A DNA stretch of 64,000 bases from Tubulanus polymorphus. Its lineage: Eukaryota > Animalia > Nemertea. A model generated the notes under the pieces. The model searched no databases. It worked only from the letters and a program-made list of their open reading frames with translations, and was not told the DNA's origin. How positions within the stretch are numbered: the first letter of the stretch is position 1; every line of letters begins with the position of its first letter. The stretch spans positions 7,534,451 through 7,598,450 of the forward strand of contig NC_134035.1 in assembly GCF_964204645.1 (NCBI RefSeq), given 5' to 3'. Shown piece after piece: positions 23,892 through 64,000 of this stretch. Both the position numbers and the translations under genes were made by a program.

Positions 23892-25084
23892 ATGGCGAGT
23901 GGAAGTTATATAAATCCCTCTAAGAATTCTAGAATATCGAATGCAATTAAAGCAGAACGTTGTCATCATATAATTACTCATAATCCTTCTAATATTAATC
24001 CAAATGAAACTTTATATGTTAGAATTCCTAGGTTAAATCAATATACTTTTTATGTGCCAAGTAGTATTTATTTATCGGCTGATATAGAAGTAACTGGTAA
24101 TGATAATTATTATTTTGTAGATAATGTTGGTAGATATTTAATCAAAAAAATAAACTACAAAGATTGGACCAGAAACAGTTTTAACATTAGATGATTATAA
24201 TTTATTCGCGCATTATAAAGATTTGTGGTTAACTAAAGAAAATAGAAATAATATGATATTTCAAGGCATCCACCAATCGGAAAATCAAACTAAATTAAGA
24301 TCAGGAGCTAATAACGCAGAAGTAACTAATGACGTAGATAATTTAATAAAAAAAGATTTACGGTAGTAAATATAAAATTCCATTACACTTTGAATTAATA
24401 GATAATAATACACCTTTGTATAAATATACAAGAAGTTGTTATATTTGAAATAACCTTTGCACCCGTAAATGAAATAGTATTGTGGAGTGTTTTTAAAGAT
24501 ATTGGCTATAAATTATCGAATTCATGTTTAAAGTATGATACAGTAACTGATGAAAATATTGCGAGTACAATTCTAACTCAATACAATCGAGGTTATTCAT
24601 TATTATATGATTATATTGACAAATTCAAAACTGTAACTAATTTTGCGGCTGATAAAATAATCAATGAAAATATTAACTTTCCTAGACGTTCAATGAAAGG
24701 TGTATTAATATTTTTTACTACAACATATTCTAATGGTGCAATGAAAGTTAAAAATAAAATATTTTGTCAGGGCATGCGAATGATTGATCAATGGGTTGAA
24801 ATTAAAAAACATTTTATGAATGAAAAAAATAAACTATCTGAAGATTGTAATATTAATCAAATTGATTATAATACTGGTAATAAATTTGCATGATGGTTAG
24901 ATTTTAGAACAACTGAAGATAACTTATTACATGGTTCTGGGAAGAAATTACGTAATACAAGAGATGGGATACAATTATTCATGAAAAAGAAAAAAGGAGG
25001 TCTCAACTATAAATGCATGTTTATGTTATATCGGATGCACAATTAAATACATCAAATTTTTAATTACATAGTATTCAATATTAA
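23892..25084 (+). pseudogene. Polinton major capsid protein pseudogene
   Basis: High similarity to 60550-61797 (ITHNPSNINP, NINFPRRS), broken by frameshifts. Confidence 0.9.
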
Positions 25085-25114
25085 GAATATAAAGTTAATA
25101 TTGATGATATATAA

Positions 25115-26220
25115 ATGGGGGATAAAAAATTTCAAAATACTAAAGAACAATATTTTAAGAAATGTATGTTATAACCCCGAGAGTTCGGTTGCTTATTCTT
25201 CTGCAAAAAAATATATGGAGTCAGGTTAAACAAGATAAATTGAATAAGATAATCCAACAAAATCTAGTTAAATATAAAGATATTGATGAATTTATGTTAG
25301 AACAACCAACATATACAACACATAAAAAAAATATAAAACCCGTAAAACTATGGTAAGTTACGTAGATCAACAAAGGCAGGGAGATTTAATTGATATGATA
25401 AATCTTAAAAAAAGATAATAATGATTATTGGTGGATATTAAAAATAATTGATATTTTTAGTCGTTATGTGTGGAGCTTCCCGCTCTACAGAAAAGATGCT
25501 GCACAAACTTCTTTCAGGTGGTAAACTAAAGCCAGAAAAAATACAATTTGATGATGGAAAGGAATTTGATAACTCATTTGTTCATGTACTCTTAGATTAT
25601 CATAATATTAGAAATTTTTCAACAAAATCAGATAAGAAAGCAGCATTTGTTGAACGATTTAATAGAACATTAAGAACAAGAATGTCAAAATATTTCACAG
25701 CAAATAATACTTATGAATGGATTGATGTCATACCAAAATTAATAGAAGGCTTTAATAATCCTTACCATTCATCAATTGGAATGAAACCTATTGAACTAGA
25801 AAACCTGAAAATGCTGAAATTGTTTGGAATTACGGGGCATTTCTTGTAGATGATTTTGATGAGCCTCAATTGGTGAGCCTAAATATAAGGTTGGTCAAAA
25901 TGTTAGAATTTCTAAGTATAAAAAAATACTTGATAAAGGATACGATCGTAACATTACAAGAGAAATATATAACATAAAAAAATAATAACAACATTACCAT
26001 ATGTCTAAAATTAGAAGATTTGGAAGGCGAAGAAGTTGATGGGTATTTTCATGAAGAAGAATTAAGTTTAACTACTAACAATCTAGAACAAGAATATAAA
26101 ATTGGAAATTATTGAAAACAAAAAATGTTAAAAAGAAAAAAATATTCTTTAGTAAAATGGGTTGGGTGGCCGGATAAATTTAATGAATGGATACTATCAA
26201 GTAAAATTAAAAATATATAA
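25115..26220 (+). pseudogene. Polinton integrase pseudogene
   Basis: Similar to 61828-62955 (QFDDGKEF, VERFNRTL), with frameshifts. Confidence 0.9.
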
Positions 26221-26829
26221 ATGAATAAAGAATTATTCATATTTGAACCTCATAATATGTTATTTTCTGGTGTCACGAATTGTGGAAAAATATGTTTTAT
26301 AATAAATTTATTTGAAACTTTTTATAAAAACTATTTTGATAATATAGTATTATTCTGTCCAACGTATGAATTCAATCGAACTTATGATAGAACTATTACT
26401 AGAAATAATGAATTTATTGTATTAGATCCTAATACAGTGAAAGAAAATTTAGATGATTGAATTAAAATAGCAATTGATATTTATAATGGAACAAATACAT
26501 TATTTATTATAGATGATTGTGCAAATTTACATGATTCAAAAGTTAGAGAAAGTGAGTTATGTTACCTAGCTTTCTCTGCTAGACATTTTAGAATTTCAAC
26601 GTCGGTTCTAAATCAAAAATATAATTCAATTGTAAAAGATTTTAGAGAGAATATAAGATTTTTGGTTTTATTCTATAATAAAGATAGAAAATCAATGAAA
26701 AATGCACTTGAGGAAATTGATATTATTCCACATGATTTACATAATGAATATATGGATAAATTGAAAGATAATAAACAATCAAAATTATTATTTCGATTAC
26801 AGCACCCATTTAAATATGAATTTATTTAA
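26221..26829 (+). pseudogene. Polinton packaging ATPase pseudogene
   Basis: Similar to 62956-63564, with an in-frame TGA at 26458-26460. Confidence 0.9.
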
Positions 26830-27036
26830 ACTCAACTAGCTTGTTAATCTATTATATTTTTAGTTACATTCTAGTTATCTTTTAGTTGTTGGTATTTGAA
26901 ACAAAAATCAAATAAAATTCAACAAGAAATAAATCAAAATTATAATAATTCAACTAGCTTGTTAATGTAGTATATTTTTAGTTACATTCTAGTTAAATTC
27001 TAGTTACAACAACACAACTAATTTTTTGTTATAAAA

Positions 27037-27920
27037 ATGGGTGGAGAAAAGAAAATAGAATCTAAAAATTGTGATGTTCCAATTGAAAAAACTTGATGAT
27101 TTAGGTATAACAGAAACAAAATTAACTCCAGCTAATGGTGCTTTAAATGATGTTACAACAAAAATTAATTATGAATATTATCTTTATTGCAAACATCAAT
27201 TAGAAATATTAATTGCATCTGGAGAATGTAAAACTTTTATTGGTCTTACTTATAATGAATTAGATACAATGAAATCAGATCAAATTATTAAATTGTTTAA
27301 GATTTATGAAACTGCAGGAATAGCTAGAATTAATGACGCGATATCAGAAAATGTAATAACATGTTATTCTAAGTTATGTAATTATGTGCTACCAATTGAA
27401 GATGAAAATAAATAATACTCCGATTTAAAAAATGATTCTTTAGTTATGACTGGATTAAATAAATGGATTGAATATCTATCATTACAATTAGGTGGATTTA
27501 TGACATTATTATCAACTGGAGTTATAACATTTTCATACATTGATAATAAAAGTTTTTCTATAATGAATGAGCGAGGTGGAAGAAGTGAAAGAATTAACTG
27601 TGAAGAAAAAACCTGGATCACAGAAACAAATTGAATGGTCTCGGCAGTTAGGAATCAAACCAAAAGAATTTAAAAATGCCAAAAAAGAAAAAATGAAATT
27701 TTTGATAATAAAGATGGAAATGATGTTATTTCTATTCCCTCTAAATCATTCAATAAATATTTTTATTAATCAAACGGTCTTGTAATTGTTATCATTTTGA
27801 TAGAATGTAGTTGCTATAAAAAATCTAATAAAAATTATGATGTTAATAATTCTGAAACTTATTCTGTTGAAAATGAAAAAACTTCTGAAATTCCAAAATT
27901 CACCATAAAAATGGATTAAT
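27037..27920 (+). pseudogene. Two decayed Polinton accessory genes (about 27037-27565 and 27567-27920)
   Basis: The first matches the ORF starting at 63870. The second begins MSEVEEVKELTVKKKPGSQKQIEWSRQLG. Both are frameshifted. Confidence 0.6.
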
Positions 27921-28232
27921 AACTTTCAAATTAACCAAAAAATCATTTTATTTATCTAAAAATATTTCTTTTTTTAATTAATTAAATATCTCACTACTTT
28001 TGTCTATCTATTAGGAGCAATTTAATTTTCCAGATAAGTCATTTCGGATTCTTGATATTTAATTAATTTCATTATTTTATTATTTTTATTATTACATTTT
28101 CTTTTTGCTTATTTTATTTTTTTATTATTTAATTTTTTCATTATTTTATGTTTTTATAATTATATTCTTTTACAATTTTATGTTTTTACTATTTTATGTT
28201 TTTTTTTCATTTTATTTGTTTAATTATTTTAT

Positions 28233-28551
28233 TTATTCAACAATTTCTAACTCATGATGACCGTGTTCATCTTTTCCGTGATAGAATATTTTAAAACGTT
28301 CTAAATCTTTTAATTCCTCTTTACTTAATGAAACCGATTCATCACAAAAAATCCTTTAAATTCTCGTGTTGTACTAACATTACAGTAACTCAAATTTGCT
28401 GATATTTTTTCTCCATATTCAGTTTTTATCTTTTCTAGTTTTGATATTTTATGTTCGATTTCTTTTGTAACATCGACTAACTTTTTTACTTCAAATTGTT
28501 TTTTGCTGGTTTTATTTTATTATTTATTGATGTTACTTTTCTCTCTCCCAT
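28233..28551 (-). pseudogene. Small terminal Polinton gene (possible OB-fold/ssDNA-binding protein), frameshifted
   Basis: TAAATG start 85 nt inside the right terminus; translation includes KISKLEKIKTEYGEKISANL...FKIFYHGK. The fold assignment is a guess. Confidence 0.45.
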
Positions 28552-28731
28552 TTATCAGGGGAAAAAATTAAAAGTGGTGTTGAGTGATATTCTGACCTCT
28601 CGACCTCTGGTATGAAAACCCACTTTTCCAATAACTGATATTCATATAAATGATATTCATATAAATGATATTCATATGAAATTCATATATATGAAATTAA
28701 AAATATGAAAAAATAATTCTAATTTCTAATC

Positions 28732-31640: not shown

Positions 31641-31665
31641 ATAAAATATTGTATATAAATATTAG

Positions 31666-32067
31666 AGTAAGTGTTTAATAGTTGTTTCAGGCTAGAGGTT
31701 GAAAGGTTGAGTGAATAAAAAAACAAATATAAAAAGTAATTTTAATTTCTAACCTTAATATATATTCATAGTCGTGTGTATTTTAAGGTAATTATTAAAG
31801 GAATAAATTAATATTACTAGAAAAGATTTAATTATATAAATCTATTCTATTGTGTTTAATATAAATTGGTCGCTCCGTTCCCAATTTATTCAATTTCAAT
31901 AAGCTTTGAAATTAAAATTACTAATATTTTAGAATAAATGTTTATACAATATATTTAAAAATACACACGACTATGAATATATATTATAGTTAGAAATTAA
32001 ATTACTTTTTATATTTGTTTTTTTATTCACTCGACCTCTGGCCTGAAACAACTATTATACACTTACT
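31666..32067. repeat. 402-bp fold-back with ~115-bp inverted arms that have Polinton-like AGT...ACT ends and a central hairpin
   Basis: Arms at 31666-31784 and 31958-32067; hairpin ATAAATTGG-TCGCTCCGTTC-CCAATTTAT at 31861-31889. Confidence 0.9.
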
Positions 32068-48436: not shown

Positions 48437-48755
48437 CTATTGATAGAAAATGAAACGATGAAAACCCCGTTAACAATTGAACCTGGTATGAGTATACGGT
48501 ATTACGCTCATTCGACAACTGCTCAATCCAAGGTCAGACAAACAAAAAAGAAGTATTAGGTCTAATTCAAAAAATGTCGAGTAACGAGAGAAATCCAACA
48601 ATAAATTCAGCCAAAAATGAAAAAAGTCGACAAAAATCCACTATATAAAAGAAAAACTATCTGATAGTTTAGTAATTAGAAAAGTGGGGTTTCAGATCAG
48701 AGGACGAGAGGACGAGACACCACTCATCACCACAAGTAATTTTTTTTCCTTATAA

Positions 48756-51700
48756 ATGGGGGAGAATGAACACCAACCAGAAAACAATAATGTTAATAAA
48801 AATCAATATTATTGCACATATTGTAAAAAATACGTTGATACATCTAATAAAACACGACATGAAAAAACTGCAAATCATATAAAAAATGTAATAGATTTTG
48901 AAACTCCAGAAAATTCTAATGAAAGAAAAGAACGATTAGAAAATATGAATGTGGATGAAATAAAATGTGAAGTTTGTAATGAATTTATAGTAAAAAGGAA
49001 TTATAATAGACATCTCGAATCACAAAAACATTATAAAAATTTAAATAAAAATGTTTTAGGATTAGAATATTTTGATAATAAACCTCAACAAGTAAAAGAA
49101 TCAACTTCAAAAACTAAATCCATTTCAAATAAACCCTACATGGAAAATGTTAGAAATTATATTGATTCACTAGAAATAAAAGATACAATTGAAATCTTAG
49201 AAACATTACATAGTAAAATTGGTCCTGCAGCTATTATATTTAGATTTTTTAAAGGTACAACAATAGAAGATTATAGTAAATTTAATGAAATAATAGAAAA
49301 AATACTAGATTTGATAACAGATGTTGAATATCCAAAAATTAGTATCTCTGGGAAAGTAAGTTTTATAAAGTCAGAAGAAAAAATGGATTATAATATTCAA
49401 ACACTCTCTGAAGAAATAATTTCAAAAACACAAATAAAAGATAAGTTAGAAAAAATAGTAAATGAATTTGAACGTCATATTGAAGAAAGATATTTTGAGG
49501 GTTCTGGCTTAACATTGAATGAAATTATATATTTAGATTTAAATGTTTATAATACAAAAAGGAATAAAACATCAAAAAGTAATAAAATGTTTAAAAATGA
49601 TTCAAACTTTACAACAGAAAAGGATATTAAAGCATCATCTTATATTAAATTACCATTTATAACAAAAGCAGTAATAAATATTCAAAATGAAGATAATAAA
49701 TGTTTTCTATGGTCAATTATTAGTTGCTTACATCCAACACAGGAAAAATGTTTGTAGAATAACAGATTATCGGAAATATGAAACATTATATAAAATTGAT
49801 CAATATCCAGTAACTATAAAAATGATTCCTAAAATAGAAAAAGTTAATAATTTAAAAATAAATGTATTCGAATTAATGCAATTACCAAAAACAAAAGGTG
49901 AAAATATTAAAGATTATACATTGGAAGCTTTATATTTAACAGAATATTATGATGATGAAAATGCTATAGATTTGTTATATTATAAAAAAGATGAAAATGA
50001 ACATTATATGTGGTTAAAACAAATTGATTTATTCTTTAGAACAACAGAAAGTGATCATCATCGTAAAATTTATCTATGTAGAAAATGTTTATCTAAATTT
50101 ATGACTGAGAATACATTATTAAAACATAAAGAATTATGTGATAATAAAGATTTTTGTAAATTAATAATGCCAACAGAAAAAGATTATAAATTGAAATTTA
50201 CTAATCATAAATTTAAAAATATTATTCCATTTGTAATTTATGGGGATTTTGAATCGTTGAATAAAGAATTAACTGATCAAGATAGAAAAGAAATATATAA
50301 CAAAAAGCAATTATTAAAATCAATGGATAAAGGAAATGAATTAAATGAAGACACAATACAAGACCCACCAATTATAAATACAATTAAAAAAGTTCATCAA
50401 AGAGCTGCTGCTTATGGAATTTACATCAAATCAAATTATCCCGAATTATATGAAAGTCAATATATTTCTTTTAGAGGTGAAAATGTAGTTAATGATTTTT
50501 GTGATAAAATGATTGAATTAGAAAGTGATTTTACAAAATTATTAAACAAAAATAAAAGAATAGTTATGACAAAAGAAGATGAAATTGATTTTAATTATGC
50601 AACTCATTGTTGTTATTGTGAAAAACGTTTTTATTCATTTGATAAAAGAGTTAGAGATCATGATCATTTGAATTCAAAATATCGTGGAGCTGCTCATGAA
50701 GATTGTAATTTACAAGCTAAAAAAGTAAATTTCGTACCAATATTATTTCATAATTTATCAGGATATGATACCCATCTATTTATAAAACAATTATCGGGAA
50801 AATTGGGTGCAATTAATCAAGAAATAGAAGAATATAATGCTATGAATGAAGCAAATGTAAGAAAATATGATTTTAAACTATTAGCTAAAACATCTGAAAA
50901 TTATATTTCATTTCAATTTGGTTGCATTAGATTTTTAGATTCTTATAGATTTCTAGCAAGTTCATTAGATAATTTATCAAAATCATTAGTTGATAATGAT
51001 TTTATTATAACTCGATATTATTATCCAAATGAACAAGATTTTAAATTATTGAGATATAAAGGCGCAATTCCTTATTCATTTTATAAAACACATGATGATT
51101 TTAATGTAACAGAATTATTAAAAGATCAATTTTATGATCAATTAAAAGAGGAGTATGTGAAAGACGAAGTTTTTAATAGAACATTTAATATTTGGAACCA
51201 TTTTAATATGAAAAATCATGGTGAATTAGTTGATTTATATTTAAAATCAGATGTTATGATATTGGCAGATATATTTGAAAAGTTTAGAGAAGTTAATCTA
51301 AACCATTTTTATGTTGACCCTTGTTATTGTTATTCAAGTCCTGGTTTAACCTGGCAATGTGGTTTAAAATATACAAATGTAGAATTAGATTTATCAAAAG
51401 AACCAGATATGGTTTTATTATTTGAAAAATCAATTAGAGGTGGAATTAGTGGTGTTATGGGAGATAGGTATTTTAAAGCAAATGATGAATATAAATTATT
51501 ATATATTGACGCCAATAATTTATATGGTTGGGCAATGATGCAACCTCAACCATACAAAAATTTTATATTAACAGAAGTTGAAAATGATGATAAAACTGAT
51601 TGGGAAAGCGCAATTACGAGTTTAAAAGATGAAGCACCAATTGGTTATTTCTTTGTAGTTGATTTGGAATATCCCGAAAATATTAAATTTAAAACAAGAA

Positions 51701-53823
51701 ACTTGCCATATTGCCCGGAACATTTAGCCGTAGATGATAGTTATTTAAGTGAATACCAGAAGAAAGTAAAACCGAAAGATCATGTTTTTACGGAAAAATT
51801 AATACTTACTCAAAATAATAAATACAATTATATTGTTCATTATAGAATGTTAAAATTTTATCTAAAACAAGGAATGAAATTAAAGAAAGTACATAGATAT
51901 ATTGAATTTAATCAATCGAAGTGGTTAGAAAAATATATAGATTTCAATACTCAACAGAGAACCATATCAAAAACAGATTTTGAAAAAGATTTCTTCAAAT
52001 TAATGAATAATAGTTTTTATGGTAAAACTTGTGAGAATATTCGTAATAGAAACGATATTGAATTAGTAAATAATTCTGAAAGATTAAGACATTTACAATC
52101 AATTCCTAGACATTTAGGAAATAAAAGATTTGAAGATTATTTAACAGCAGTTAAATTAAAAAGAACATCAATGAAATTTAATAAACCTATATTTATTGGT
52201 TCGACTGTTTTAGAAGTATCAAAATTATTAATGTATGATTTTTATTATAATGTTTTACAACCACTTTTTGGAGAAAAACATATAGAAATATTATATTTTG
52301 ATTCTGTTACAGCAGACACCCCAATATTATTAAAATACAATAATAAAATATTGGTAAGAAGAATTTCAGAAATAATTCCTAATCAAAATAAATCTTATAT
52401 TTCATATGGTGAAAAAGAATTAATACAAATAAATGGATTAATAGATGTTTGGACAAGAAATGGATGGAAAAAATTAAATAATATTATTAGACATAAAACA
52501 AATAAGAAAATCTATAGAGTTAGAACTAAATTAGGATTTGTAGATGTTACAGAAGATCATAGTTTAATTAAACAAAATGGTGATGAAATAAAACCAACTG
52601 ATATAAAAATTGGAGATGAATTATTACATAAAAGATTTTACCCAAGAATGAATCATATGTCATTTGATGAAATAATTGATAATATTTATAATATAGAACC
52701 CAAAACATTAGAAGAAAAAGAATATTTTATCAAAGGATTTTTCATAGGTGATGGTTCAGCAGGTGTGTATAATTATGTTAGTGGAACTAAATATTGTTGG
52801 TATTTATGCAATCAAGACTTAAAATTATTAGATAGAATTAAGAAATTTTGCGAAGAAGTTTATTCACATAAAACATTTAGAATCATGGATGTTATGAAAT
52901 CATCAGCAGTTTATAGAATACTTGTAAATAATCCTAAAGATTTTGCTATAGAATATAATGATGAATTCTATATTCATGCAATAGTGAAAAGTAATACTTC
53001 AACAAAAGAAAAGATAGTTCCAGATTATGTATTAAATGCAAAAAATAATTTAAGAAAATGGTTCTTCATTGGGTTCTACGCAGCCGATGGTACTAAAAAA
53101 TTTACAAAGGATAAAAAGATAACCTTTGCACAGAAAGGAAAAGTTGCTATATCAGGGTTAAATATATTATGTAATTCATTAGGCTTCAATATGAATATTG
53201 GATTGATTAAATCTAAACCAAATTGTTTTAATCTAAGCCACACAGAAAAAGATTTAACTGAAGAAGTTAAAGATTTATTTGAAATATATAACCCAACAGA
53301 TTATGTTTATGATTTATCAACAGATGATGGAACATTCAATTCTGGGTTCCCATTAATCCAAAAAAATACTGATGCATACATACTAAAAATCAAGACAAAT
53401 GATATAACAAAAGACTTAAAAACATTAAAACATCATTTTGATTTTAGCAATTATCCTAAAGATCATGAACTATTTAGCAATGATAATAAAAAGATTCCTG
53501 GTAAATTTAAAGATGAATTAGGAGGTGATGAAATGATTGAATTTGTTGGGATAAGAAGTAAAATGTATTCATATAAAACTAAAGATCATGAATCTAAAAA
53601 GTTAAAAGGAATAACAAAACATGTGGTTGATAAACATATAGAATTTCAAGATTATATAAAGTGTTTATATAAATCAATTGTAATGAAACACAAAATGAAT
53701 TGTTTAAGATCAGAAAATCATGAAATGTATATAAATGAAATTGAAAAAACTAGTTTAAATCCATTTGATGATAAAAGGCATATTTTAGATGATGGTATAA
53801 AAACATTACCTTATGGTCATTAA
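48756..53823 (+). CDS. polB: Protein-primed family B DNA polymerase (N-terminal zinc fingers, exonuclease with endonuclease VII-like insert, intein); one 1-nt frameshift at about 49742-49748
   Basis: Motifs YGDFES, RDHDH..YRGAAH..CN, FHNLSGYD, YIDANNLYGWAM, KLMNNSFYGK, YFD/TD, PGKFKDE, RSKMY and DDKR. Confidence 0.93.
52303..53367 (+). mobile_element. Intein (355 aa) with LAGLIDADG homing endonuclease, inside pPolB motif C
   Basis: YFD|SVTADTP (block A), VDVTEDHSL (block B), FIKGFFIGDG and FFIGFYAADG (LAGLIDADG), YVYDLST (block F), IQKN|T (block G, +1 Thr). Confidence 0.95.
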
Positions 53824-55120
53824 AACATAAAATCAAAATCATCATACTCGAAATCACTACTGGTTTCTTTAATTTTATTTAATTGTTCAGGTTCTTCTTC
53901 AATTCCATTTTTCTCATTTAAATAAAGTTCTATCTTGTTCCACATTTCATCTCGCTCTCTTTGTTTCTTTTTGTTTGTTAATTCGTCAAATGGAATTATA
54001 ATATCTATGTTTAAATAATTTACAATCTTATTTAAAAAGAATTCATAATTTATTGAATCTGTTATTCTATTTTCCAAATGATACATTAATATTTGTTTGA
54101 ATATTTTTTTAATATTTTCCATATCTTCTTCTGTTAATTTAGGTTTTTCATAATAATCGTTAAATAATAAATATAAATACATTTTCTTTTGTTTTGTGTT
54201 AAATGTTGATGGAATAATTGTTTTTATAATATCTTTTTTAGTTATTTCACCATTTTTATTTTCTATTATTTTCATTTTTTCAAGCCATTGCATATATTCT
54301 GGTGTATGATCTTCTATAGAAAATGTTTTAAAAATTTCATCAAGATAATTTAATTTTGGTTCTAAGAGAAAATCTCTAGTTTTTTCTTCACCCCATAAAT
54401 TCTTTTGCCATCCACATTCAACACAAAATAACACAGCACCTTCTTGTCTTAAGGTCGCATAACTACATTGTGGGCATTTTCGTTTATAATTTATTGGTAA
54501 TAGATCTTCATTAAGCTCTTGGTATTTTCTTACGTTTTCTTTATGTTTTATTGTTCTATTATGTAGATTTGAATTACTTGTTGTAATAATCAATTTACAA
54601 TATTTACAATAATATGTTTTTCTTGTTAATTCATTATATTGTTTTTCTAACTTTTCAACTGTTTCTTTATTATCTGGTAACGTTTTCTCATATTTTATTT
54701 TTTCTAATAAATTATTTTTTCTTTCATTGAATTCAGTTTCAAATTTATTAGAAATTTTATCTATATGTGCTTTACGAAATTGATGATTCTCCCAATCTTC
54801 TATATTTTCAGGGTTATATTTTATTCGACAAGGCTCACAGAAATGATCTTTTATATTATCCTTATCATAGAATAAGAAAGGTCTTTTCCAAATAACTTCA
54901 GGTTCAACTTCGGCAGATTTACTATCAACATTAGCCGTTGCGCCATTAATTCTACACTTCTCTGAATGTTTTTAACATAATTTCTTGAGAATAATTTATT
55001 ACATTTTGGACAGTTTATTTTAGGGGGTTTATAATTTTCATCATGTTTTTTCATATGTCGAGCCATATTACTTTTTCTGATAAGTTCACTACAAATTTCG
55101 CATGCTATCTTCTCATCCAT
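53820..55120 (-). CDS. Multi-zinc-finger protein fused to a poxvirus A2/VLTF3-like late transcription factor (~433 aa after restoring one base in the T5 run at 54969-54973)
   Basis: The frame is open from 54971 to 53820. Zinc ribbon CPQC..CVECG, then IFKQILMYHLENRITDSINYEFFLNKI and DEMW. Confidence 0.75.
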
Positions 55121-55188
55121 TTATTAAGGAAAAATTTTATTAAAATTAATTTTTAATGATGAGCGGTAATTTTTTTATGTTATAAATA

Positions 55189-55941
55189 ATGGTAGAATTA
55201 AAAGAATACAGAATATTTGTAGATTCTAGAAGGCTTACAAATTATAAATCTCATAATTTATTAATACAATTAGATAGAGAATTTAAGAATTGCGTTGATT
55301 TAAAATTAGTAAATATTAGTTTATGTAATTCTTTTTACAATGTAACGGATAAAAGTCTTGAACATTTAATTTTTTCAATCTTTTATAAAAAAAGGAATAA
55401 ATGGTTTTTTATATATTTAAAACCAGGATTATATAATTTAAATACATTAGCACAAGAAATTAATAGAAAAGCTCGAGCTAAATTAGGAAGTGATTCTGGA
55501 TTTAATATTAGAATTTTAAAAAGTGCTAGTTCTAATAAAATAAAGATTAGGTTAGACGAACAATTTAAATTTACAGTAAGAAAACCTTTAGGTAAACTGT
55601 TAGGAATTGCCCCTGATATTGTTACAACATATGCAGAAGGTAAATCAAACTTAATACCTTTTACACATTTTTATATTTATTGTAATTTAATCGATCCTAC
55701 AAAAACATTCGAAGCAACTAAAGATATAACTTGTAATTCTGGTTTACTAAACATTTTACCATTGAAGAATGTTAAAGAATTTGGAACGCAAATAAATTAT
55801 AATTTAACAGAATGTGATTTCAAACCATGCATTCCTAGTTTTAATAATTTTAAATTAGAAATAAGAAATCATAATGGATACTTAATTGATTTGAATAATT
55901 TCCCTGTAATTTATGAATTAGTTATAAGATGTAAAGAGTAA
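55189..55941 (+). CDS. Minor capsid (penton) protein
   Basis: Motifs IFVDSRR, NSFYNV, PGLYN, IYCNLI and EIRNHNGYLIDLNN..IYELVIR, the single jelly-roll pattern of Polinton pentons. Confidence 0.75.
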   Translation: MVELKEYRIFVDSRRLTNYKSHNLLIQLDREFKNCVDLKLVNISLCNSFYNVTDKSLEHLIFSIFYKKRNKWFFIYLKPGLYNLNTLAQEINRKARAKLGSDSGFNIRILKSASSNKIKIRLDEQFKFTVRKPLGKLLGIAPDIVTTYAEGKSNLIPFTHFYIYCNLIDPTKTFEATKDITCNSGLLNILPLKNVKEFGTQINYNLTECDFKPCIPSFNNFKLEIRNHNGYLIDLNNFPVIYELVIRCKE

Positions 55942-55957
55942 TTTTTCACCTATATAA

Positions 55958-56311
55958 ATGAATATAACTGTTGGACCGAGTATATGTTTTGGTTTTGATT
56001 TTAAACGTGAGAAAGAAATGAAATTTAATATGAATGATGTAATTACACATATCAAAAATATTGCATTTTCTAATGAAACAACATTTGAGTATGAAACAAC
56101 AATAGATAAAGAAACTTTTAATGTAGAAAAGATTACTAATTTAATTAGAGAATCTTTAAGATTTTATGAATTAGATGAAGATTTTATCATCGATGATATC
56201 AAAAAAATAATAATTGAAATATATACAAATGAAACTAGTAATAAAATAAATGTTGAATTAATCATAAATAAGTTAACTAAATATTTTGAAGATAGTAATT
56301 TTTTTGATTAA
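55958..56311 (+). CDS. Polinton hypothetical protein (117 aa)
   Basis: Intact ORF with the T-run/TAAATG start. Confidence 0.7.
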   Translation: MNITVGPSICFGFDFKREKEMKFNMNDVITHIKNIAFSNETTFEYETTIDKETFNVEKITNLIRESLRFYELDEDFIIDDIKKIIIEIYTNETSNKINVELIINKLTKYFEDSNFFD

Positions 56312-56314
56312 TAA

Positions 56315-56536
56315 ATGAGTGATAATAAGTGGATAATAACTGGATTATATAATGGAGCATTACTATCAGTTGGAACGGTTGGTTATTCAATGGTATTAAA
56401 AAAAGTATTCAAAATGGGAAGCGTTAATGTTGATAGATTTGATATAAATGATATTTTAAAGTTAACGTTAACAATTACTTTATCTAATTTAACAATTGAT
56501 TATTTGGAAAAACAAAAATATATTCCTCCCATATAA
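56315..56536 (+). CDS. Small hydrophobic protein (73 aa)
   Basis: TAAATG start; two hydrophobic segments. Confidence 0.7.
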   Translation: MSDNKWIITGLYNGALLSVGTVGYSMVLKKVFKMGSVNVDRFDINDILKLTLTITLSNLTIDYLEKQKYIPPI

Positions 56537-56560
56537 ATGAATAATTTTTTTGCTAAATAA

Positions 56561-56983
56561 ATGGCTTCTGCAATTATAACTATTATAGGATCAGCAATTG
56601 TTAACGCTTTAGCATTTACAGGTGGTGGTTATTTATTTAAACATATTGATAAAAATAGTTCATTAGGAGAACAAAGAAGACATAACTTAGCGTTAGAGAA
56701 ATATAATAAAGATGCAGAAGAATATAGAGAAAAGAGACAAAACTATATGGATTACATCAATAAAGAATTATATGATCAGAAGATTTCACATAGAGATTTT
56801 CAATCAGTTGATGATGCAATGAGTTTATATAACGCGGTAACCAATAAAGAAAAATTACATCTATACAAACCTAAATTATCAGATTATTATACCCCAAGTA
56901 AAGAACAACAGAAATATGAAATAATATGGATTTTAGGTGGAACAGTTATTGTTATATTTGTTGCTTATAAGTTTACTAATTAG
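56561..56983 (+). CDS. Membrane-associated protein (140 aa; N-terminal hydrophobic helix, coiled coil, C-terminal TM)
   Basis: MASAIITIIGSAIVNALAFTGGGYLF..RHNLALE; ends in IIWILGGTVIVIFVAY. Confidence 0.8.
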   Translation: MASAIITIIGSAIVNALAFTGGGYLFKHIDKNSSLGEQRRHNLALEKYNKDAEEYREKRQNYMDYINKELYDQKISHRDFQSVDDAMSLYNAVTNKEKLHLYKPKLSDYYTPSKEQQKYEIIWILGGTVIVIFVAYKFTN

Positions 56984-57002
56984 TAATTTTTATTCTAAAT
57001 AA

Positions 57003-57437
57003 ATGGAAGATAAAGTTGATAGTATTGATATCATTCCTCATGATATAAATAAAACTAAATTAAAAATATATTTAGAAAAACAAATATTAGAATTTGAAAG
57101 TGACCTAAAGATAAAAAAGAAAAAATATTTAAAAAGTAAAATTATATATTATTTGATTATAAGTGGTTCGGTTACAATTAGTTCTGTAATAACATTTCTA
57201 GCAATATTCAGTCCATTAACACCTTTAGCTATATCAATTGGTGTATTAGGATTAAGTTCAAGTGTTTTAACTGGTATAAGTTCAAAATTAAATATAAAAA
57301 GTAATAAAGAAAAAATAAAATCTAATATAAAAGAAATTAATAAATTAAAGAATACACTAGATTATATAATAAGTTTAAATGGTCATATAACAGTTGAAGA
57401 ACAAGATAAATTATTAAAAGAATTAATAAATTATTAA
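57003..57437 (+). CDS. Two-TM coiled-coil protein (144 aa)
   Basis: Hydrophobic hairpin flanked by Lys-rich helices. Confidence 0.75.
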   Translation: MEDKVDSIDIIPHDINKTKLKIYLEKQILEFESDLKIKKKKYLKSKIIYYLIISGSVTISSVITFLAIFSPLTPLAISIGVLGLSSSVLTGISSKLNIKSNKEKIKSNIKEINKLKNTLDYIISLNGHITVEEQDKLLKELINY

Positions 57438-57453
57438 TTTTTTAATTATATAA

Positions 57454-58842
57454 ATGGTAGATAGTTTTCCAAAAGCTTTCCAATATAATAAATCAATTAA
57501 ATATAATATTCCAGCAATAGATTTTAATAAAGATATTACATATAGAAATGAAGTTTTAAATTCATTAATTGATTTATATATTTATGTTACTGAAACTAAT
57601 AATTTTAATGCAAAGATGGAAAATATATTTCATGTATATTTAATTGATTTTAAAAAATTGAAAGATGAAAAACAATGGTTATTAAAATCTAATATGAAGT
57701 ATTGGCAGAATCAATTAAATTTTGCTGTTTATTGTGCAACAACAGGATGTGGAATTAGTTGGAATGATCATTTGAATAATTCTAAATATAAACTAATTCA
57801 AAGTTTATTTAGATTTCATACATACTTTCAAATCAGAATAATATTAAATGAATTAGAGTGTGCTTTACCAGGATCTAGATATTTTAAAGAATTGGATAAT
57901 AATATTAATTTATCTAAGTTTTATAAAATTTGCAATGAATTTAATATAGATATAAATAATTCTGATTTTAGAATAAAAATTGGAACAATAAGATCACTTC
58001 CATGCCCTAGAAAGATTGCAGAATATTGTGCACTTCCTATACCATCTAATAGTTTTTATAATATCTATAATAAAAAATTAGGTTATGGTAAAATAGAAAC
58101 AAAGGATTTAGAAACATTAAATTTCAATAAATTACCGAAATTTTATGATAATTTAAAACAAGAAAACAATAATGGTTGGGTATATTTTATTTTAGAAAAT
58201 AGTGAAGGTTTTACTAAATCAGGTATAGAAAGAATAAATCAATCTATTAGAACTTATTTGATATGTATTTTAGGCGCGCAAGTTGAAACAAGATCACCGA
58301 TAATTGGAAATTTGAATACATCATTCGATACACAAAAACAATTCAAAGTTTTATTTGAAGATTCAATTCATAATGATAAAAATAGATCGATTCCAGAAAA
58401 CATTATAAGATATCAAAATTATTTAGATAAATCTCATGTAAGACTTAATTATTGTATAGGCCCTAATCTATTAATTATTTCTAATGATTTAGTATTAAAG
58501 ATGGGAAATATAATTGGTTATAATAATCTAAGTAAAACTGCGACAATAAATAATTCATTTGGATTAAATGATATAAATAAAAAGATTATTACTGCTCCAA
58601 AATTAATGGAAGGTGAAAAAAATAAAAAACATATTCAATCAACTGAAACTAAAACTAAGAATATTAAATTGGATAATGATTCCAAAATAAAAGATTACAA
58701 TACATCAGAAGATATAAAAACTGATAATATTCAACATGATATAATTAAACAAAATGACGATAATAAATCCCATGAAAATACTAAATTAGCTATAACTTGT
58801 ATAGGAATTGTAATCGGAGGAATATTATATTTTAAATTTTAA
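57454..58842 (+). CDS. Polinton protein of unknown function with C-terminal TM anchor (462 aa)
   Basis: WQNQLNFAVYCATTGCGISW motif; ends in LAITCIGIVIGGILYF; tail conserved in the decayed copy. Confidence 0.85.
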   Translation: MVDSFPKAFQYNKSIKYNIPAIDFNKDITYRNEVLNSLIDLYIYVTETNNFNAKMENIFHVYLIDFKKLKDEKQWLLKSNMKYWQNQLNFAVYCATTGCGISWNDHLNNSKYKLIQSLFRFHTYFQIRIILNELECALPGSRYFKELDNNINLSKFYKICNEFNIDINNSDFRIKIGTIRSLPCPRKIAEYCALPIPSNSFYNIYNKKLGYGKIETKDLETLNFNKLPKFYDNLKQENNNGWVYFILENSEGFTKSGIERINQSIRTYLICILGAQVETRSPIIGNLNTSFDTQKQFKVLFEDSIHNDKNRSIPENIIRYQNYLDKSHVRLNYCIGPNLLIISNDLVLKMGNIIGYNNLSKTATINNSFGLNDINKKIITAPKLMEGEKNKKHIQSTETKTKNIKLDNDSKIKDYNTSEDIKTDNIQHDIIKQNDDNKSHENTKLAITCIGIVIGGILYFKF

Positions 58843-58858
58843 TTTTTTTATTATGTAA

Positions 58859-58996
58859 ATGGATGTAAAAGGTGTAGAAGATATTCCATTGGATCCTTTA
58901 GATGAACCTGGTATAAGTGATGAACAACAACCTGATTTTGATGAAACAAGTTTCAGTAATGATAATAAAACGGTATATAATACTAATTTAGGTGAA

Positions 58997-59029
<33 letters not shown>

Positions 59030-60478
59030 TATGATGATCCCGAATTACATGAAAAATTAAATAAAATTAAAATTAAAATAACAGTTACAATTGTTAACGA
59101 AATATTGCCAAAAGATGTAATAGATGAAATTGGTTCAGAAGAAATTGTAAAACAAATTTTAAAAGATGATCCATTTTTCATGAATAATTTAAAATTAAAA
59201 AATAATGTGTGGTATTATAATGTTGAATTAAATAACAAAATTGTATCAGTTCAATTATCTAAAATGAGACAAGAAAATCTGTTCCATATAGAAATGCGAG
59301 CAAGATCTACAATTGAAGGTTCAAAAGGCGGTAGAGAATTTCTCAGAATTATATGGAATGCAATCAATAGAATAAATGAAGAAGAACCAATTCCTAATAT
59401 TGATATAAACAAATATTCACCATTTAAAAATCCAAATCCAAATCCTACTGATTTTGATCCAGAGATGGAAGAGAATAGAAATCGATTAGATAGATTAAGA
59501 TCTTCAACACCCGAAACATCTAGAAGAGATATTCAACAAATTGATAATGATTCAAATCAATTACAATTAGGAAAACATTTTGATAGCATGTTAGATGCAA
59601 TTCATTCATTTGACGAAGAGATGAATAGTATTTTAGATACACCCAGTACTGAAACTGAAATAAATCGAATACAATCTTTACTAGAAAAAGGATTACTTGA
59701 TTTAACTGATGAAGAATTAAAAGAATTTCCTGAACAAGCACGTAGAGAAATTAAAGGAATGCAAGAATCAGCTGGTGAAATTGCTAATATTAAGATGAGA
59801 TTTTCTAAAATAACCATATTAGAAAAAGAATTAGTTAATGTAGATGAAGAATTAAAACAATTAGAATTAAATAGAGATCTTCAATTAATCGAGGAAGCTG
59901 ATTATGAAAGCAGAAAGTTAGCTTTAGAAAAAGAAATAGATGATTTAGAATATAACATAAAATTACAAAAAGAAGAAAGAGATACATTATTAAAATCATA
60001 TGATCTTAATCATATTAAAAAATTAAAAGTTATTTTTAAAGATTTGTTGATAAAACCAGATTCTAAAATATCATTGAAAGATAGAATAAAATTATTATTT
60101 AAATTAGAAGGAATAACAATTCTTTCAATTCTAACAGCTGTAACTATGGTATTTACAACAATTGGTTTAGCTATATCAAATGCTTTAAAATCTACTCCTA
60201 CTCCCACTCCAAATAAACCAGATAAACCTCCAGGCAATAATTCTATACAAGATAAAGTTAAGGATGGTTTAAAGAAATTAGCAAAATATTTATGGGAACT
60301 ATCTAAAAAATCTGCTGCAGCTTTACCAGGAGTTATTGCATCAATTGTTGGTTTTATATTGAAATCTGCAGGAAACATTATTAACTTTGCTGCTGAACAT
60401 ATTATTTTATTTTTAATTACAGTTGTAAGTGCTATTATTTTTGGTTTAGTAAATATGATATCAAAAAATATCAAGTAA
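58859..60478 (+). CDS. Acidic/coiled-coil protein with multiple C-terminal TM helices (539 aa)
   Basis: Intact ORF; C-terminal hydrophobic helices conserved in the copy at 23.4-23.9 kb. Confidence 0.85.
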
Positions 60479-60549
60479 ACCATGATATCAAAAAATATCA
60501 AGTAAACCATGATATCAAAAAATAAATAATTAATTTTTTTGTTAAATAA

Positions 60550-61797
60550 ATGAGTGGGAGTTATATAAGTCCTTTGAAGAATCATAGAATATCTAATGCT
60601 ATTAAAGCAGAAAGATCACATCATATAATTACTCATAACCCTTCTAATATTAATCCCGATGAAACTTTATACGTTAGAATCCCTCGATTAACACAAAATA
60701 CTTTTTATGTTCCAAACAGTATTTATTTATCAACCGATATAAAAGTAACTGGCCATGATAACAATTATGTTGTTGATAATGTTGGAAGATATTTGATTAA
60801 AAAATTAACTATAAAGATTGGTCCGGAAACAGTTTTCTCATTAGATGATTATAATTTATTTATGCATTATAAAGATTTATGGTTAACTAAAGAAAATAGA
60901 AATAATATGATATTTCAAGGCATCCAATCGGAAAACCATAATAAATTAAGATCTGAAGCCAATAATGCAGTAGTAACTCGTGCCACAGATAATTTGATTA
61001 AAAAGATTTATGGAAGCAAATATAAAATTCCATTAGACTTTGAATTGATAAATAATAATGCACCTTTATATAAATACGCAATTCAAGAAGATATTATATT
61101 TGAGATAACATTTGCTCCTGTAAATGAAATTGTATTATCTAGCGTTGTTAAAGATATGGGTTATAAATTATCGAATATATGTTTAGAATATAACACAGTA
61201 ACTAATGAAAATATTGCTAGCACAATTCAAACTCAATACAATCAAGGATTTTCATTATTATATGATTATATTGATAAATTTAAAACTGTAACTATTAATG
61301 CAAATGATGAAATAATTAATGAGAATATTAACTTTCCTAGAAGATCTATTAAAGGTATATTAATATTTTTTACTATTGCAACATATTCTAATGGTGCAAT
61401 AAATGTTGATAATTATTATAATCCTGAAATAACAAAAGTAGAAATAACTATCGAAGGTATAGCGAATAAAATATTTTGTCAAGGAATGAGAATGATAGAT
61501 CAATGGCCAGAAATTAGAAAACATTTTATGAATGAAAAAGTAAAATCATTTGAAAATTGTAATATTAATCAAATTGATTATTATACTGGTAATAAATATG
61601 CATTATGGTTAGATTTTAGAACAACTGAAGATAACTTATTACATGGTTCTGGAAAAAAACTACAAAATACAAAAGATGGAATACAATTATTCATGAAAAA
61701 GAATAAAGGAATCAAAAATTTTAAAATGCACATTTATATTATATCTGATGCGCAATTAAATATTGTAAATTCACAATTAGATAGTATTCAATATTAG
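60550..61797 (+). CDS. Major capsid protein (double jelly-roll, inferred)
   Basis: 415 aa, beta-rich; NPSNINPDETLYVRIP, ALWLDFRT..LHGSG; located next to the integrase and ATPase. Confidence 0.8.
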   Translation: MSGSYISPLKNHRISNAIKAERSHHIITHNPSNINPDETLYVRIPRLTQNTFYVPNSIYLSTDIKVTGHDNNYVVDNVGRYLIKKLTIKIGPETVFSLDDYNLFMHYKDLWLTKENRNNMIFQGIQSENHNKLRSEANNAVVTRATDNLIKKIYGSKYKIPLDFELINNNAPLYKYAIQEDIIFEITFAPVNEIVLSSVVKDMGYKLSNICLEYNTVTNENIASTIQTQYNQGFSLLYDYIDKFKTVTINANDEIINENINFPRRSIKGILIFFTIATYSNGAINVDNYYNPEITKVEITIEGIANKIFCQGMRMIDQWPEIRKHFMNEKVKSFENCNINQIDYYTGNKYALWLDFRTTEDNLLHGSGKKLQNTKDGIQLFMKKNKGIKNFKMHIYIISDAQLNIVNSQLDSIQY

Positions 61798-61827
61798 AAA
61801 TATAAAGTTAAAATTAAGTGTATATAA

Positions 61828-62955
61828 ATGGGTGGTAAAAAATCTCCTAATACTAAAGAACAATATTTAAGAAATTTATATTACAACCCTGAGAGTTCGG
61901 TTGCTTATTCTTCTACTAAAAATATATGGCGTAAAGTAAAACAAGATAAATTAGATAAGATAATCCCACAAAATTTAGTTAAATATAAAGATATAAATGA
62001 ATTTATGTTAGAACAACCAACGTATACAACACATAAAAAAATTGTTAGAAAATATAAAACTCGTAAAACTATGGTAAGTTATGTAGATCAACAGTGGCAA
62101 GGAGATTTAATTGATATGAAAAATGTTAAGAAAGATAATGATGATTATTGGTGGTTATTGAATATAATTGATATTTTTAGTCGTTATGTATGGAGCTTCC
62201 CACTTTATAGAAAAGATGCTGTACAAACATCAAATGTTTTAAGAAAATTTCTTTCGGATGATAAACTAAAACCAGAAAAAATACAATTTGATGATGGAAA
62301 AGAATTTGATAATTCACTTGTTCATGAACTCTTAGATAATCATAATATTAAATATTTTTCAACAAAATCAGATAAAAAAGCAGCAGTTGTTGAACGATTT
62401 AATAGAACATTAAGAACAAGAATGTGGAAATATTTTACAGCAAATAATACTTTTAAATGGATTGATATTTTACCAAAATTGATAGAAGGATATAATAATT
62501 CTTATCATTCTTCTATTGGAATGAAACCTATTGATGCTAGAAAACCTGAAAATGCTGAAATTGTTTGGAATAATTTATATGGAGCATTTCTTATAGATGA
62601 TTTTGGCGAACCTAAATTTAAAGTTGGTCAAAATGTTAGAATTTCTAAGTATAAAAAGATATTTGATAAAGGATACGATCGAAATTTTACTAGAGAAATA
62701 TATAAAATAAAAAAGGTAATAACAACAAAACCATATGTCTATAAATTAGAAGATTTAGATGGTGAAGAAGTTGATGGCTACTTTTACGAAGAAGAATTAA
62801 GTTTAACTACTGAAAATCTAGAACAAGAATATAAAATTGAAAAAGTAATAAAAACAAAAACTATTAAAAGAAAAAAATATTCTTTAGTAAAATGGGTTGG
62901 ATGGCCAGATAAATTTAATGAATGGATATTATCAAGTAAAATTAAAAATATATAA
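61828..62955 (+). CDS. Retroviral-like (rve) DDE integrase with C-terminal chromodomain
   Basis: WQGD, IDIFSRY, QFDDGKEF, VVERFNRTL; chromodomain YKIEKVI..LVKWVGWPDKFNEWI. Confidence 0.95.
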   Translation: MGGKKSPNTKEQYLRNLYYNPESSVAYSSTKNIWRKVKQDKLDKIIPQNLVKYKDINEFMLEQPTYTTHKKIVRKYKTRKTMVSYVDQQWQGDLIDMKNVKKDNDDYWWLLNIIDIFSRYVWSFPLYRKDAVQTSNVLRKFLSDDKLKPEKIQFDDGKEFDNSLVHELLDNHNIKYFSTKSDKKAAVVERFNRTLRTRMWKYFTANNTFKWIDILPKLIEGYNNSYHSSIGMKPIDARKPENAEIVWNNLYGAFLIDDFGEPKFKVGQNVRISKYKKIFDKGYDRNFTREIYKIKKVITTKPYVYKLEDLDGEEVDGYFYEEELSLTTENLEQEYKIEKVIKTKTIKRKKYSLVKWVGWPDKFNEWILSSKIKNI

Positions 62956-63564
62956 ATGAATAAGGAATTATTCATATTTGAGCCTCATAATATGTTAATT
63001 TCTGGTGTAACAAATTGTGGAAAAACTTATTTTATATTACATTTATTAGAAACTGTTTACGAAAACTATTTTGATAATATAGTATTATTTTGTCCAACAT
63101 ATGAATTTAATCAAACTTATGATAGAAACATTACTAGAAATAATAAATTTATTATATTAGATCCTAAAACAGTAAAAGAAAATTTAGATAATTGTATAAA
63201 AATAGCAATTGATATTTATAAAGGATCAAATACATTATTTATCATAGATGATTGTGCTAATCTACATGATTCAAAAGTTAGAGAAAGTGAGTTATGTTAT
63301 TTAGCTTTCTCTGGAAGACATTTTGGGATAACAACTTGGGTTTTAAATCAAAAATATAATTCAATTGTTAAAGATTTTAGAGAAAACATTAGATTTCTAG
63401 TTTTATTCTACAATAAAGATAGAAAATCAATGAAAAATGCACTTGAGGAAAATGATATTATTCCACATGATTTACATAATGAATATATGGATGAGTTGAA
63501 AAATATTAAAAGATCAAAATTACTATTTAGATTACAACACCCATTTAAATATGAATTTATTTAA
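62956..63564 (+). CDS. A32-like DNA packaging ATPase
   Basis: Walker A GVTNCGKT, Walker B FIIDD, GRH motif, LNQ. Confidence 0.92.
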   Translation: MNKELFIFEPHNMLISGVTNCGKTYFILHLLETVYENYFDNIVLFCPTYEFNQTYDRNITRNNKFIILDPKTVKENLDNCIKIAIDIYKGSNTLFIIDDCANLHDSKVRESELCYLAFSGRHFGITTWVLNQKYNSIVKDFRENIRFLVLFYNKDRKSMKNALEENDIIPHDLHNEYMDELKNIKRSKLLFRLQHPFKYEFI

Positions 63565-63860
63565 ATTCAACTAGTTTGTTAATCTAATTGAATTCTAGTT
63601 ACATTCTAGTTGAATTCTAGTTGTTAGTAGTTGAAACAAAAATCAATTAGATTTAACAATATTTCAACTAGCTTGTTAATCTATTTTAATTCTAGTTACA
63701 TTCTAGTTGAATTCTAATTGTTAGTAGTTGAAACAAAAATCAACTAGAATGTAACTAGAAATAAACAAAAACAACAATATTTCAACTAGCTTGTTAATCT
63801 AGTTGAATTCTAGTTACATTCTAGTTGAATTCTAGTTGCAACAACACAACTAATTTGTTT
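63565..63860. repeat. Intergenic CTAG-rich direct and inverted repeat array
   Basis: Units of TTCTAGTTACATTCTAGTTGAATTCTAG; a homologous array lies at about 26830-27025. Confidence 0.85.
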
Positions 63861-63869
63861 GTTATATAA

Positions 63870-64000
63870 ATGGGAGGTGAAAAGAAAATAAAATCTAAAA
63901 ATGGTGATGTTACAATTGAAAAAACTTTAGATGATTTAGGAATAACAGAAACAAAATTAACTCCAGATGATGGTGCTTTAAATAATGTTACAACAAATAA
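63870..64000 (+). CDS. Polinton accessory gene, 5' part (runs off the window)
   Basis: TAAATG start; MGGEKKIKSKNGDVTIEKTLDDLG, homologous to the ORF at 27037. Confidence 0.75.
   Translation, partial: MGGEKKIKSKNGDVTIEKTLDDLGITETKLTPDDGALNNVTTN

Follow-up and report, generated by a model that had tools for sequence, protein, structure and literature searches.

It has long been an open question whether the Mavericks or Polintons of animals live as transposons, as autonomous viruses or as virophages in need of a helper, none of them having a known trigger. Here we describe an integrated, multi-copy Polinton or Polinton-like virus (PLV) of the nemertean Tubulanus polymorphus, which begins at position 48671 of a 64,000-nucleotide stretch of contig NC_134035.1 (the window) and whose genes start in the manner of poxvirus late genes. 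Among described systems, the entomopoxvirus-associated PLVs AHEV_PLV1/2, CBEV_PLV1 and Ca_PLV1 (PMC11296320) are likewise small and have been proposed to be parasites of animal poxviruses, and one of their relatives is integrated in a beetle genome. They come from occlusion bodies, carry an adenovirus-type protease and mostly have a tyrosine recombinase or no integrase, whereas the present element is set apart by its promoter wiring, its many copies and an rve integrase. The available text of that paper makes no mention of a promoter, TAAAT, VLTF, intein or motif. As these poxvirus-associated PLVs were described in 2024, an earlier note on this DNA overstated its case in proposing a candidate new system.

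Mavirus and the endogenous mavirus-like elements (EMALEs) of Cafeteria (PMC8547959) are also integrated elements with a DNA polymerase B of the protein-primed type (pPolB) and an rve integrase; EMALE types have different promoter motifs according to their helper, and one of them shares the late promoter of its helper. In that system, the host is a protist, the capsid is that of a true virophage, the motif is the TCTA of Cafeteria roenbergensis virus (CroV), the helper is known and reactivation has been shown, whereas our element has an animal host and a TAAAT initiator and is known here from sequence alone. The coral polintoviruses and MELD viruses (PMC11131425, PMC8502044) are animal-integrated Polintons with a VLTF3 homolog that has been attributed to exchange with giant viruses; the MELD gene is labeled mimivirus-like, whereas the gene described here is of the poxvirus type on a small sample. 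In the available text of both papers, the word "promoter" had no match and no promoter analysis was found. The yeast cytoplasmic linear plasmids pGKL1/2 (PMC6211774) share with our element a pPolB and, with a TAAAN initiator, produce 5' poly(A) leaders by slippage; unlike it, they have their own poxvirus-related RNA polymerase and capping enzyme, no capsid and no integration. The integrated PLVs of Tetraselmis, with VLTF3 among their gene labels, are awakened by the giant virus TetV-2 (10.1101/2025.10.09.676808); they differ in having an algal host and no poxvirus-type promoter and in having been demonstrated by experiment. Poxvirus-associated PLVs, VLTF3-bearing animal Polintons and the promoter types of EMALEs are known, and the apparently new feature is the TAAAT wiring of animal Polintons, of which we found no report in a full-text literature search that had most subscription journals outside its scope.

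TAAAT(G) is the intermediate and late initiator of poxviruses, at which slippage generates 5' poly(A) leaders (PMC4542343, PMC3061580, PMC6211774). In the element, 12 of 13 gene starts read TAAATG, against a background of 46 among its 622 ATGs, which bears out the proposal of poxvirus-late-like promoters on nearly all genes. At the remaining start, that of a 250-amino-acid (aa) open reading frame (ORF), TAAAT lies 3 nt upstream of the ATG, and an upstream T-run is displaced along with it. This T-run begins at position -16 for 8 of the 12 plus-strand genes and, for the gene with the displaced ATG, at -19; measured from the T of TAAAT, its onset lies 13 nt upstream in 9 of the 12, the displaced gene included. 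Because the register to TAAAT is held where the ATG has moved, the T-run tracks the initiator and not the start codon. In front of the integrase, the ATPase and the last ORF, the T-run is replaced by a shorter A/T variant. The extended pattern AATTTTTN{4,9}TAAATGG has eight matches in the window, compared with 0.13 expected from 100 shuffles, and all of them are at gene starts, six in the element and two in a decayed relative; the host DNA of the window has none. The features that define a poxvirus post-replicative promoter, a TAAAT initiator overlapping the start codon and an A/T-rich upstream element, are thus both found here. No gene class is without them, PolB and the VLTF3-like gene themselves included, which leaves no early gene and no leader.

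To place the motif among relatives, we scanned metagenomes with an alignment of the capsid, took the best 80 of the 234 relatives found and scored the starts of six conserved genes, taking only ORFs with an N terminus aligned to the query and removing duplicates. In a capsid tree of 57 sequences (ORFs of at least 330 aa), clade A comprises 15 sequences (Shimodaira-Hasegawa [SH] support 99) whose capsids are 50 to 76% identical. Within this clade, TAAATG is present at 32 of 35 homologous starts in loci of 20 to 44% GC, those of 36 to 44% GC among them, and in a second lineage (L059, L060) at 4 of 4, compared with 0 of 111 in all other relatives and 0 of 23 in those of their loci below 40% GC, although these counts are not independent trials, the sequences being related by descent. 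The motif-less relatives have A or G at -3 in 98 of the 111 cases. Only in 2 of 70 cases does the TAA of TAAATG double as the stop codon of the ORF upstream. Being clade specific, absent from the AT-rich sister loci and rarely part of a stop codon, the motif reflects neither AT bias nor stop-start coupling. As reconstructed from these capsids, the tree needs at least two origins or losses of it. Divergent gene pairs have back-to-back promoters of 19 to 30 nt in L002 and L009-L013. A protein search placed about 50 further capsid clusters, known from protein alone, in clade A; a capsid search of genome_contigs yielded three distant, motif-less contigs, and viral_contigs and the phage collection contained no capsid relative. 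The promoter pattern additionally retrieved L189, which has both PolB and rve but is further removed (29% identity in PolB); its four main ORFs all start with TAAATG, and three of them had not been selected by the pattern. By eye, the N-terminal extension of its integrase ORF looks protease-like.

Several side observations concern these relatives. L054, L059, L060 and L061 form a second capsid lineage (33 to 36% identity) that the tree places outside the main clade and that has TAAATG and back-to-back promoters. In the close relative L001, a deoxynucleoside kinase gene (10343-10981) has a TAAATG start; such kinases are frequent in large DNA viruses. Starts in the AT-rich, motif-less loci L017, L019, L032, L033, L042 and L046 often read T-A(4-7)-ATG, which could reflect an intermediate-type initiator or simply a Kozak context. 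Clade A capsids in cluster P0046 were deposited under Bartonella names, likely through contamination from a host animal, and a capsid of the motif-less sister group (P0095) occurs in the bivalve Mactra antiquata.

The second line of evidence is a zinc-finger-fused VLTF3/A2-like factor encoded on the minus strand (53820..55120), with a frameshift in its 5' part. Its VLTF3 domain (about 54494-53823, minus strand) consists of a zinc ribbon and a TFIIB/cyclin-like helical core, the combination that characterizes the VLTF3 family. The suggestion of a poxvirus A2/VLTF3-like factor held up in ESM Atlas, HMMER and Foldseek searches, even though the gene is split and the Pfam match is marginal (26 bits against a cutoff of 25, with a 157-aa ORF; none with two longer queries). 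ESM Atlas labeled it VLTF3 (0.96; 28 of 30 matches in the VLTF3 set), a recognition below the tool's threshold. A full HMMER scan of 1.84 billion proteins gave four matches, three of them element-like and the fourth, P0329, the only family-typical VLTF3, which is 63% identical to the gene of L081, a 232-kb genome of entomopoxvirus-like content (NAD-dependent ligase, MSV199, VLTF3); P0326 matches an ORF at the end of the clade A locus L001. Foldseek with the structural model (predicted local distance difference test [pLDDT] 74) ranked VLTF3s of cowpox virus and of two entomopoxviruses 1st, 3rd and 5th in BFVD. A word-based homolog search with the VLTF3 region found no match, and a PDB sequence search with the VLTF3 alignment found zinc fingers only. 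In a tree of 11 sequences, two of them from poxviruses, which spans long branches and AT-rich proteins and was built without asfarvirus, egovirus, mriyavirus or PLV sequences, the element and poxvirus factors stand apart from five giant-virus sequences (support 100/99). A profile built from the elements alone scores 47 and 41 bits on poxvirus VLTF3s and at most 3.7 on those of giant viruses. These comparisons moderately support a grouping of the gene with poxvirus rather than Megaviricetes-type factors, on a small sample. The 18 motif-less relatives of at least 8 kb, all incomplete, contained no VLTF3-like gene. VLTF3 in animal Polintons has already been published (PMC11131425, PMC8502044). 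Contrary to the earlier note, the gene is no mark of cytoplasmic life, since coral polintoviruses also carry VLTF3 and mriyaviruses, proposed to be nuclear, keep it without an RNA polymerase.

The stretch from 48671 is an integrated Polinton/PLV present in many copies. It has the hallmark genes (pPolB, rve integrase, double jelly-roll capsid and A32 ATPase), and GC content falls from about 38% before 48.7 kb to 19 to 26% beyond. In raw DNA reads labeled as the same species (X6; some 12% of the run, covering 46001-62800), depth was 37 to 883 (median, 311) in 25 bins of the element and 3 to 10 in four host bins, a difference of about 50-fold, and at 48671 there are 449 read starts, their flanks diverse, as expected for a family integrated at many sites. 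The reads thus confirm the proposed start of the element; its right end lies beyond the window. No free-end pile-up at the left terminus is listed among these reads. PolB and the VLTF3-like gene of the present copy are both frameshifted, which had escaped notice. At both breaks, the majority of the family's reads have a sequence other than that of this copy, so that the breaks look private or rare; the copy could act only with the help of others. Neither the main copy nor a decayed copy nearby contains a recognizable RNA polymerase, capping enzyme or protease. Consistent with the expectation that the element lacks its own transcription enzymes, scans with Pfam (14 ORFs) and NCBIfam (13 ORFs) found no RNA polymerase or capping enzyme; the sole match to an RNA polymerase A'' model (NCBIfam) falls within the intein, at 30 bits against a cutoff of 783. 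The five ORFs without a family are each shorter than 540 aa. An adenovirus-type maturation protease was not found either, with the right arm visible only in the decayed copy, L001, L002 and L005; absence of a protease is a PLV trait (PMC4642659).

We consider it probable that the element belongs to a lineage of endogenous virophages whose genes are read by a nucleocytovirus RNA polymerase, most likely that of a poxvirus-like helper, and not by host RNA polymerase II. As in EMALEs, most of its genes have a helper-type late promoter, and the ORFs seen include no recognizable RNA polymerase or capping enzyme. In this scenario, the element would be silent in an uninfected cell. Upon infection, the late machinery of the helper would start transcription inside TAAAT and add a nontemplated 5' poly(A) leader, and such slippage would explain both the missing room for a leader and the T at -3. 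The VLTF3-like factor may then bias or sustain the helper polymerase at TAAAT promoters, whereupon PolB, capsid, ATPase and integrase would copy, package and reinsert the element. The case for an element waiting for its helper is built on one strong signal, the promoters, and one moderate signal, the poxvirus-type VLTF3, and not on the three independent signals invoked earlier, as the intein drops out. The core of that earlier idea, helper-polymerase promoters and virophage-like dependence, survives the controls and is reinforced by the clade specificity and the poxvirus affinity of VLTF3; the intein does not support it, and the helper is perhaps not a poxvirus. With a clade-specific helper-polymerase promoter on almost every gene, elements can be sorted from sequence by the lifestyle they are predicted to have, and a trigger open to testing can be named. 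If the helper is poxvirus-like, the elements are footprints of poxvirus relatives in unsampled animal groups and candidates for virophage-style immunity. Going further, we tentatively suggest, as a possibility we hold in some doubt, that the whole clade of animal Polintons may be endogenous virophages whose helper belongs to a poxvirus-like lineage still unsampled and with hosts other than insects and vertebrates; they would have captured the late factor of their helper, rewired every gene to its initiator and come to act in germlines as a heritable, infection-triggered antiviral system, as mavirus does in its protist.

A number of observations weigh against this dependence on a poxvirus-like helper. 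Neither a sequence from a helper nor a transcript or particle was seen. Some 50 copies imply many germline insertions and hence either frequent infection of germ cells by the helper or a helper-free route, and a cytoplasmic polymerase would somehow have to reach a chromosomal copy. The VLTF3-like model matches TFIIB/cyclin folds in PDB (best Z, 6.9, a weak score), giant-virus and other nonpoxvirus proteins follow closely in Foldseek (E, 8e-7 versus 2e-5), the VLTF3 tree is as sparse as described above, and mriyaviruses retain VLTF2/3 without an RNA polymerase and have been proposed to be nuclear. The intein is not helper specific, its nearest relatives among the matches listed being five pPolBs and not a giant-virus PolB. 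Finally, the upstream T-run is present in 1 of 8 cases in L081 and 4 of 19 in the giant-virus bins G001-G003, compared with 37 of 62 in clade A, and TAAATG is enriched at the starts of these three nonpoxvirus bins (3 of 18, 11 of 39 and 4 of 12, against a background of 3 to 4.5%, counted in fresh stretches that had not been chosen by motif).

The initiator is accordingly not exclusive to poxviruses. The VLTF3s of G001-G003, which we take to be Pimascovirales-like, are not of the poxvirus type. L081, the single sample of poxvirus DNA in the comparison, which included no chordopoxvirus, has TAAATG at 9 of 22 ORFs and the same back-to-back arrangement as the element, whereas other giant-virus bins showed no enrichment (2 of 60 starts in L084-L086, 5 of 46 in G004-G005). 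A scan for the extended promoter found 32 loci, three of them in giant-virus bins with TAAATG at 4 of 10, 4 of 10 and 5 of 11 starts. A scan of viral_contigs for back-to-back promoters found at least 120 loci, of which 80 had flanks; most are chance matches, the motif-rich ones being the Polinton L189 and a giant-virus bin locus (L203), and no poxvirus genome was recognized among the loci listed. TAAATG starts and back-to-back promoters are frequent in the nonpoxvirus bin loci L096, L106 and L115 (from G001-G003) and L203, and judging from these counts the TAAAT initiator may be more widespread in nucleocytoviruses than usually stated. Depletion of TTTTTNT (24 in clade A coding strands versus 60 expected) was dropped as a poxvirus signal, because giant-virus bins are also depleted (0.58), as are A-runs (0.61 to 0.78). 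Since TAAATG is enriched in three nonpoxvirus bins, the helper need not be a poxvirus: the TAAATG wiring and the poxvirus grouping of VLTF3 speak for the poxvirus-type helper originally proposed, and the enrichment speaks against it. If the element does depend on a nucleocytovirus, a poxvirus-like helper is the somewhat likelier case, and another nucleocytovirus with a TAAAT initiator is a serious possibility.

Three other explanations have to be weighed against helper dependence. The motif could be an artefact of AT bias, translation context or stop-start overlap, in an element that is tightly packed, has 24% GC overall and has an integrase stop abutting the ATPase start. However, the motif is missing from AT-rich sister loci and present in GC-richer members of the clade, overlaps with stop codons are rare, the T-run follows TAAAT and not the ATG, and the first gene and the divergent genes carry the motif without any upstream ORF. 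This explanation is largely refuted, and we regard it as very improbable. Alternatively, the promoters might be relict wiring from an ancestor that parasitized a large virus in another host, the family being now or formerly a transposon in which the motif is inactive. The two broken genes of the present copy, the decayed copy and PolB fragment nearby, and the apparent crossing of hosts by clade members (one cluster lies in Bartonella-labeled assemblies) would fit such a history. Nevertheless, the motif has been kept at nearly all clade A starts over the full range of capsid divergence and GC content, the decayed copy, at 83% identity, still has TAAATG at its gene starts, and transposition still requires transcription of genes from these starts, which makes relict wiring quite unlikely.

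The remaining explanation is an autonomous nuclear element whose captured TFIIB-like VLTF3 redirects host RNA polymerase II to TAAAT, with no need for a helper. Its attraction lies in the resemblance of the VLTF3 model to the TFIIB core, in the precedent of the mriyaviruses, in the co-occurrence of VLTF3 and motif by clade in the loci seen and in the many integrated copies with no free-end pile-up at the terminus. Yet the VLTF3 gene and PolB share the same promoter, so that no early gene would start the loop, and if transcription began at the ATG with no poly(A) slippage, there would be no leader. AATAAA is undepleted in clade A coding strands (184 observed versus 191 expected; 56 in 12.5 kb of the element), which also counts against a nuclear life, but the test is weak because sister elements are only slightly depleted (0.85 to 0.89), and AATAAA and splice-site depletion were rejected as not discriminating between nucleus and cytoplasm. 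We judge a helper-free nuclear element to be unlikely but a genuine rival.

The PolB intein (52303..53367; 355 aa, with a LAGLIDADG domain) occupies polymerase motif C, the pol-c site, and its ends look intact. It had been read as giant-virus type and as a third pointer to the helper; the insertion site and family are indeed those of such inteins, but its nearest relatives are other protein-primed PolBs. Among the best 120 of 384 matches, 112 of them with usable junctions, it forms a group of six with P0139, P0140, P0141, P0144 and P0145 (SH support 99 to 100), so that it sorts with Polinton-type inteins, the very outcome that the earlier note had named as contrary to its proposal, and says nothing on the current helper. 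Other carriers include a T4-like polymerase, a delta-like polymerase and giant-virus bins; the T4-like polymerases P0146 and P0148 hold an allelic counterpart of the inteins in giant-virus and Polinton PolBs. As a pointer to the helper the intein was rejected, that of the TAAATG-rich bin G002 ranking 99th of 114 against the element's. PolB inserts of this kind have been attributed to intein invasion (PMC11161782), and the present one probably entered from a large DNA virus on a single occasion, to spread among Polintons thereafter.

The remaining features of the element all lie on the plus strand. The left terminus (48671..48755; 5'-AGT...), delimited by read starts and by its match to the decayed copy, is likely a terminal inverted repeat and holds the T-run and TAAATG of the first gene. 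It resembles the inverted right end of the decayed copy (28636-28542) at 86 to 88% identity; this comparison is the evidence for the repeat, the right end of the main copy being outside the window. PolB, identified from the ORF list and Pfam, is split by a frameshift into an N-terminal part with zinc fingers (48756..49757), which by comparison with PMC11161782 may be the terminal-protein/vOTU region, and a remainder (49687..53823; DNA_pol_B_2, E = 2.5e-19) with an endonuclease VII-like insert, whose ATG is internal and no true start; its relative P0139 is full length in a single 1693-aa ORF. The 250-aa ORF (55189..55941) is likely a minor capsid protein, judged by its position and a weak DUF5901 match only. 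Three small ORFs of 117, 73 and 140 aa (55958..56983) belong to no known family, the latter two being conserved in relatives. A 144-aa ORF (57003..57437) has two membrane helices and a SLATT-like match below family cutoffs (Pfam SLATT_fungal, E = 0.0056; NCBIfam SLATT_4, E = 2.8e-5, 24 of 55 bits); should the element be defensive, this protein is a candidate effector. Two conserved ORFs without a family follow (57454..60478), one of 462 aa, with no usable match in ESM Atlas, and one of 539 aa with a hydrophobic C terminus. The double jelly-roll major capsid protein (60550..61797) is intact, as judged from 763 homologs, a model of pLDDT 90 and Foldseek capsid matches (E = 3e-20). Named virophage capsids appear only at ranks 32 and 43, beneath other capsids, and the best matches are not labeled Maverick, which hints at a PLV-type capsid as far as the model goes. 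The integrase with its chromodomain (61828..62955; Pfam rve, E = 2.6e-10) and the A32-type packaging ATPase (62956..63564; Pfam) are likewise intact. Downstream are three 86-nt direct repeats with internal palindromes (63566..63866), possibly an origin or terminator, and a further ORF that begins with TAAATG (63870..64000) and with which the element runs past the window.

The decayed copy (22607..28636, plus strand), which had likewise gone unnoticed, is 5' truncated and comprises the right arm and right terminal repeat of the same family. Its palindrome-rich 86-nt repeats (26826-27010) likewise lie between the ATPase and the next ORF. Its right arm carries three small ORF families, also present in L001, L002 and L005, followed by the terminal repeat, which itself contains a promoter. 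A fragment at 30336-32068 (minus strand) is the 5' part of a more distant Polinton PolB, 40 to 73% identical in pieces at the protein level, with its end region duplicated in inverted orientation at 31665-32068.

The flanking genes (DEG/ENaC, rhodopsin-type G protein-coupled receptor, Sushi exons and LicD) are of animal type and confirm the animal host that had been assumed. They include a multiexon Sushi/kringle-like gene adjoining the insertion (41000-48450, minus strand), DEG/ENaC channel exons (11800-19600), an intronless G protein-coupled receptor gene (32063-33091) and a LicD-family gene (5561-6280). On the host side, a short stretch close to the left end of the element (48582-48623) is where hundreds of reads, with other flanks, have their starts or ends, marking the end of a separate high-copy repeat.

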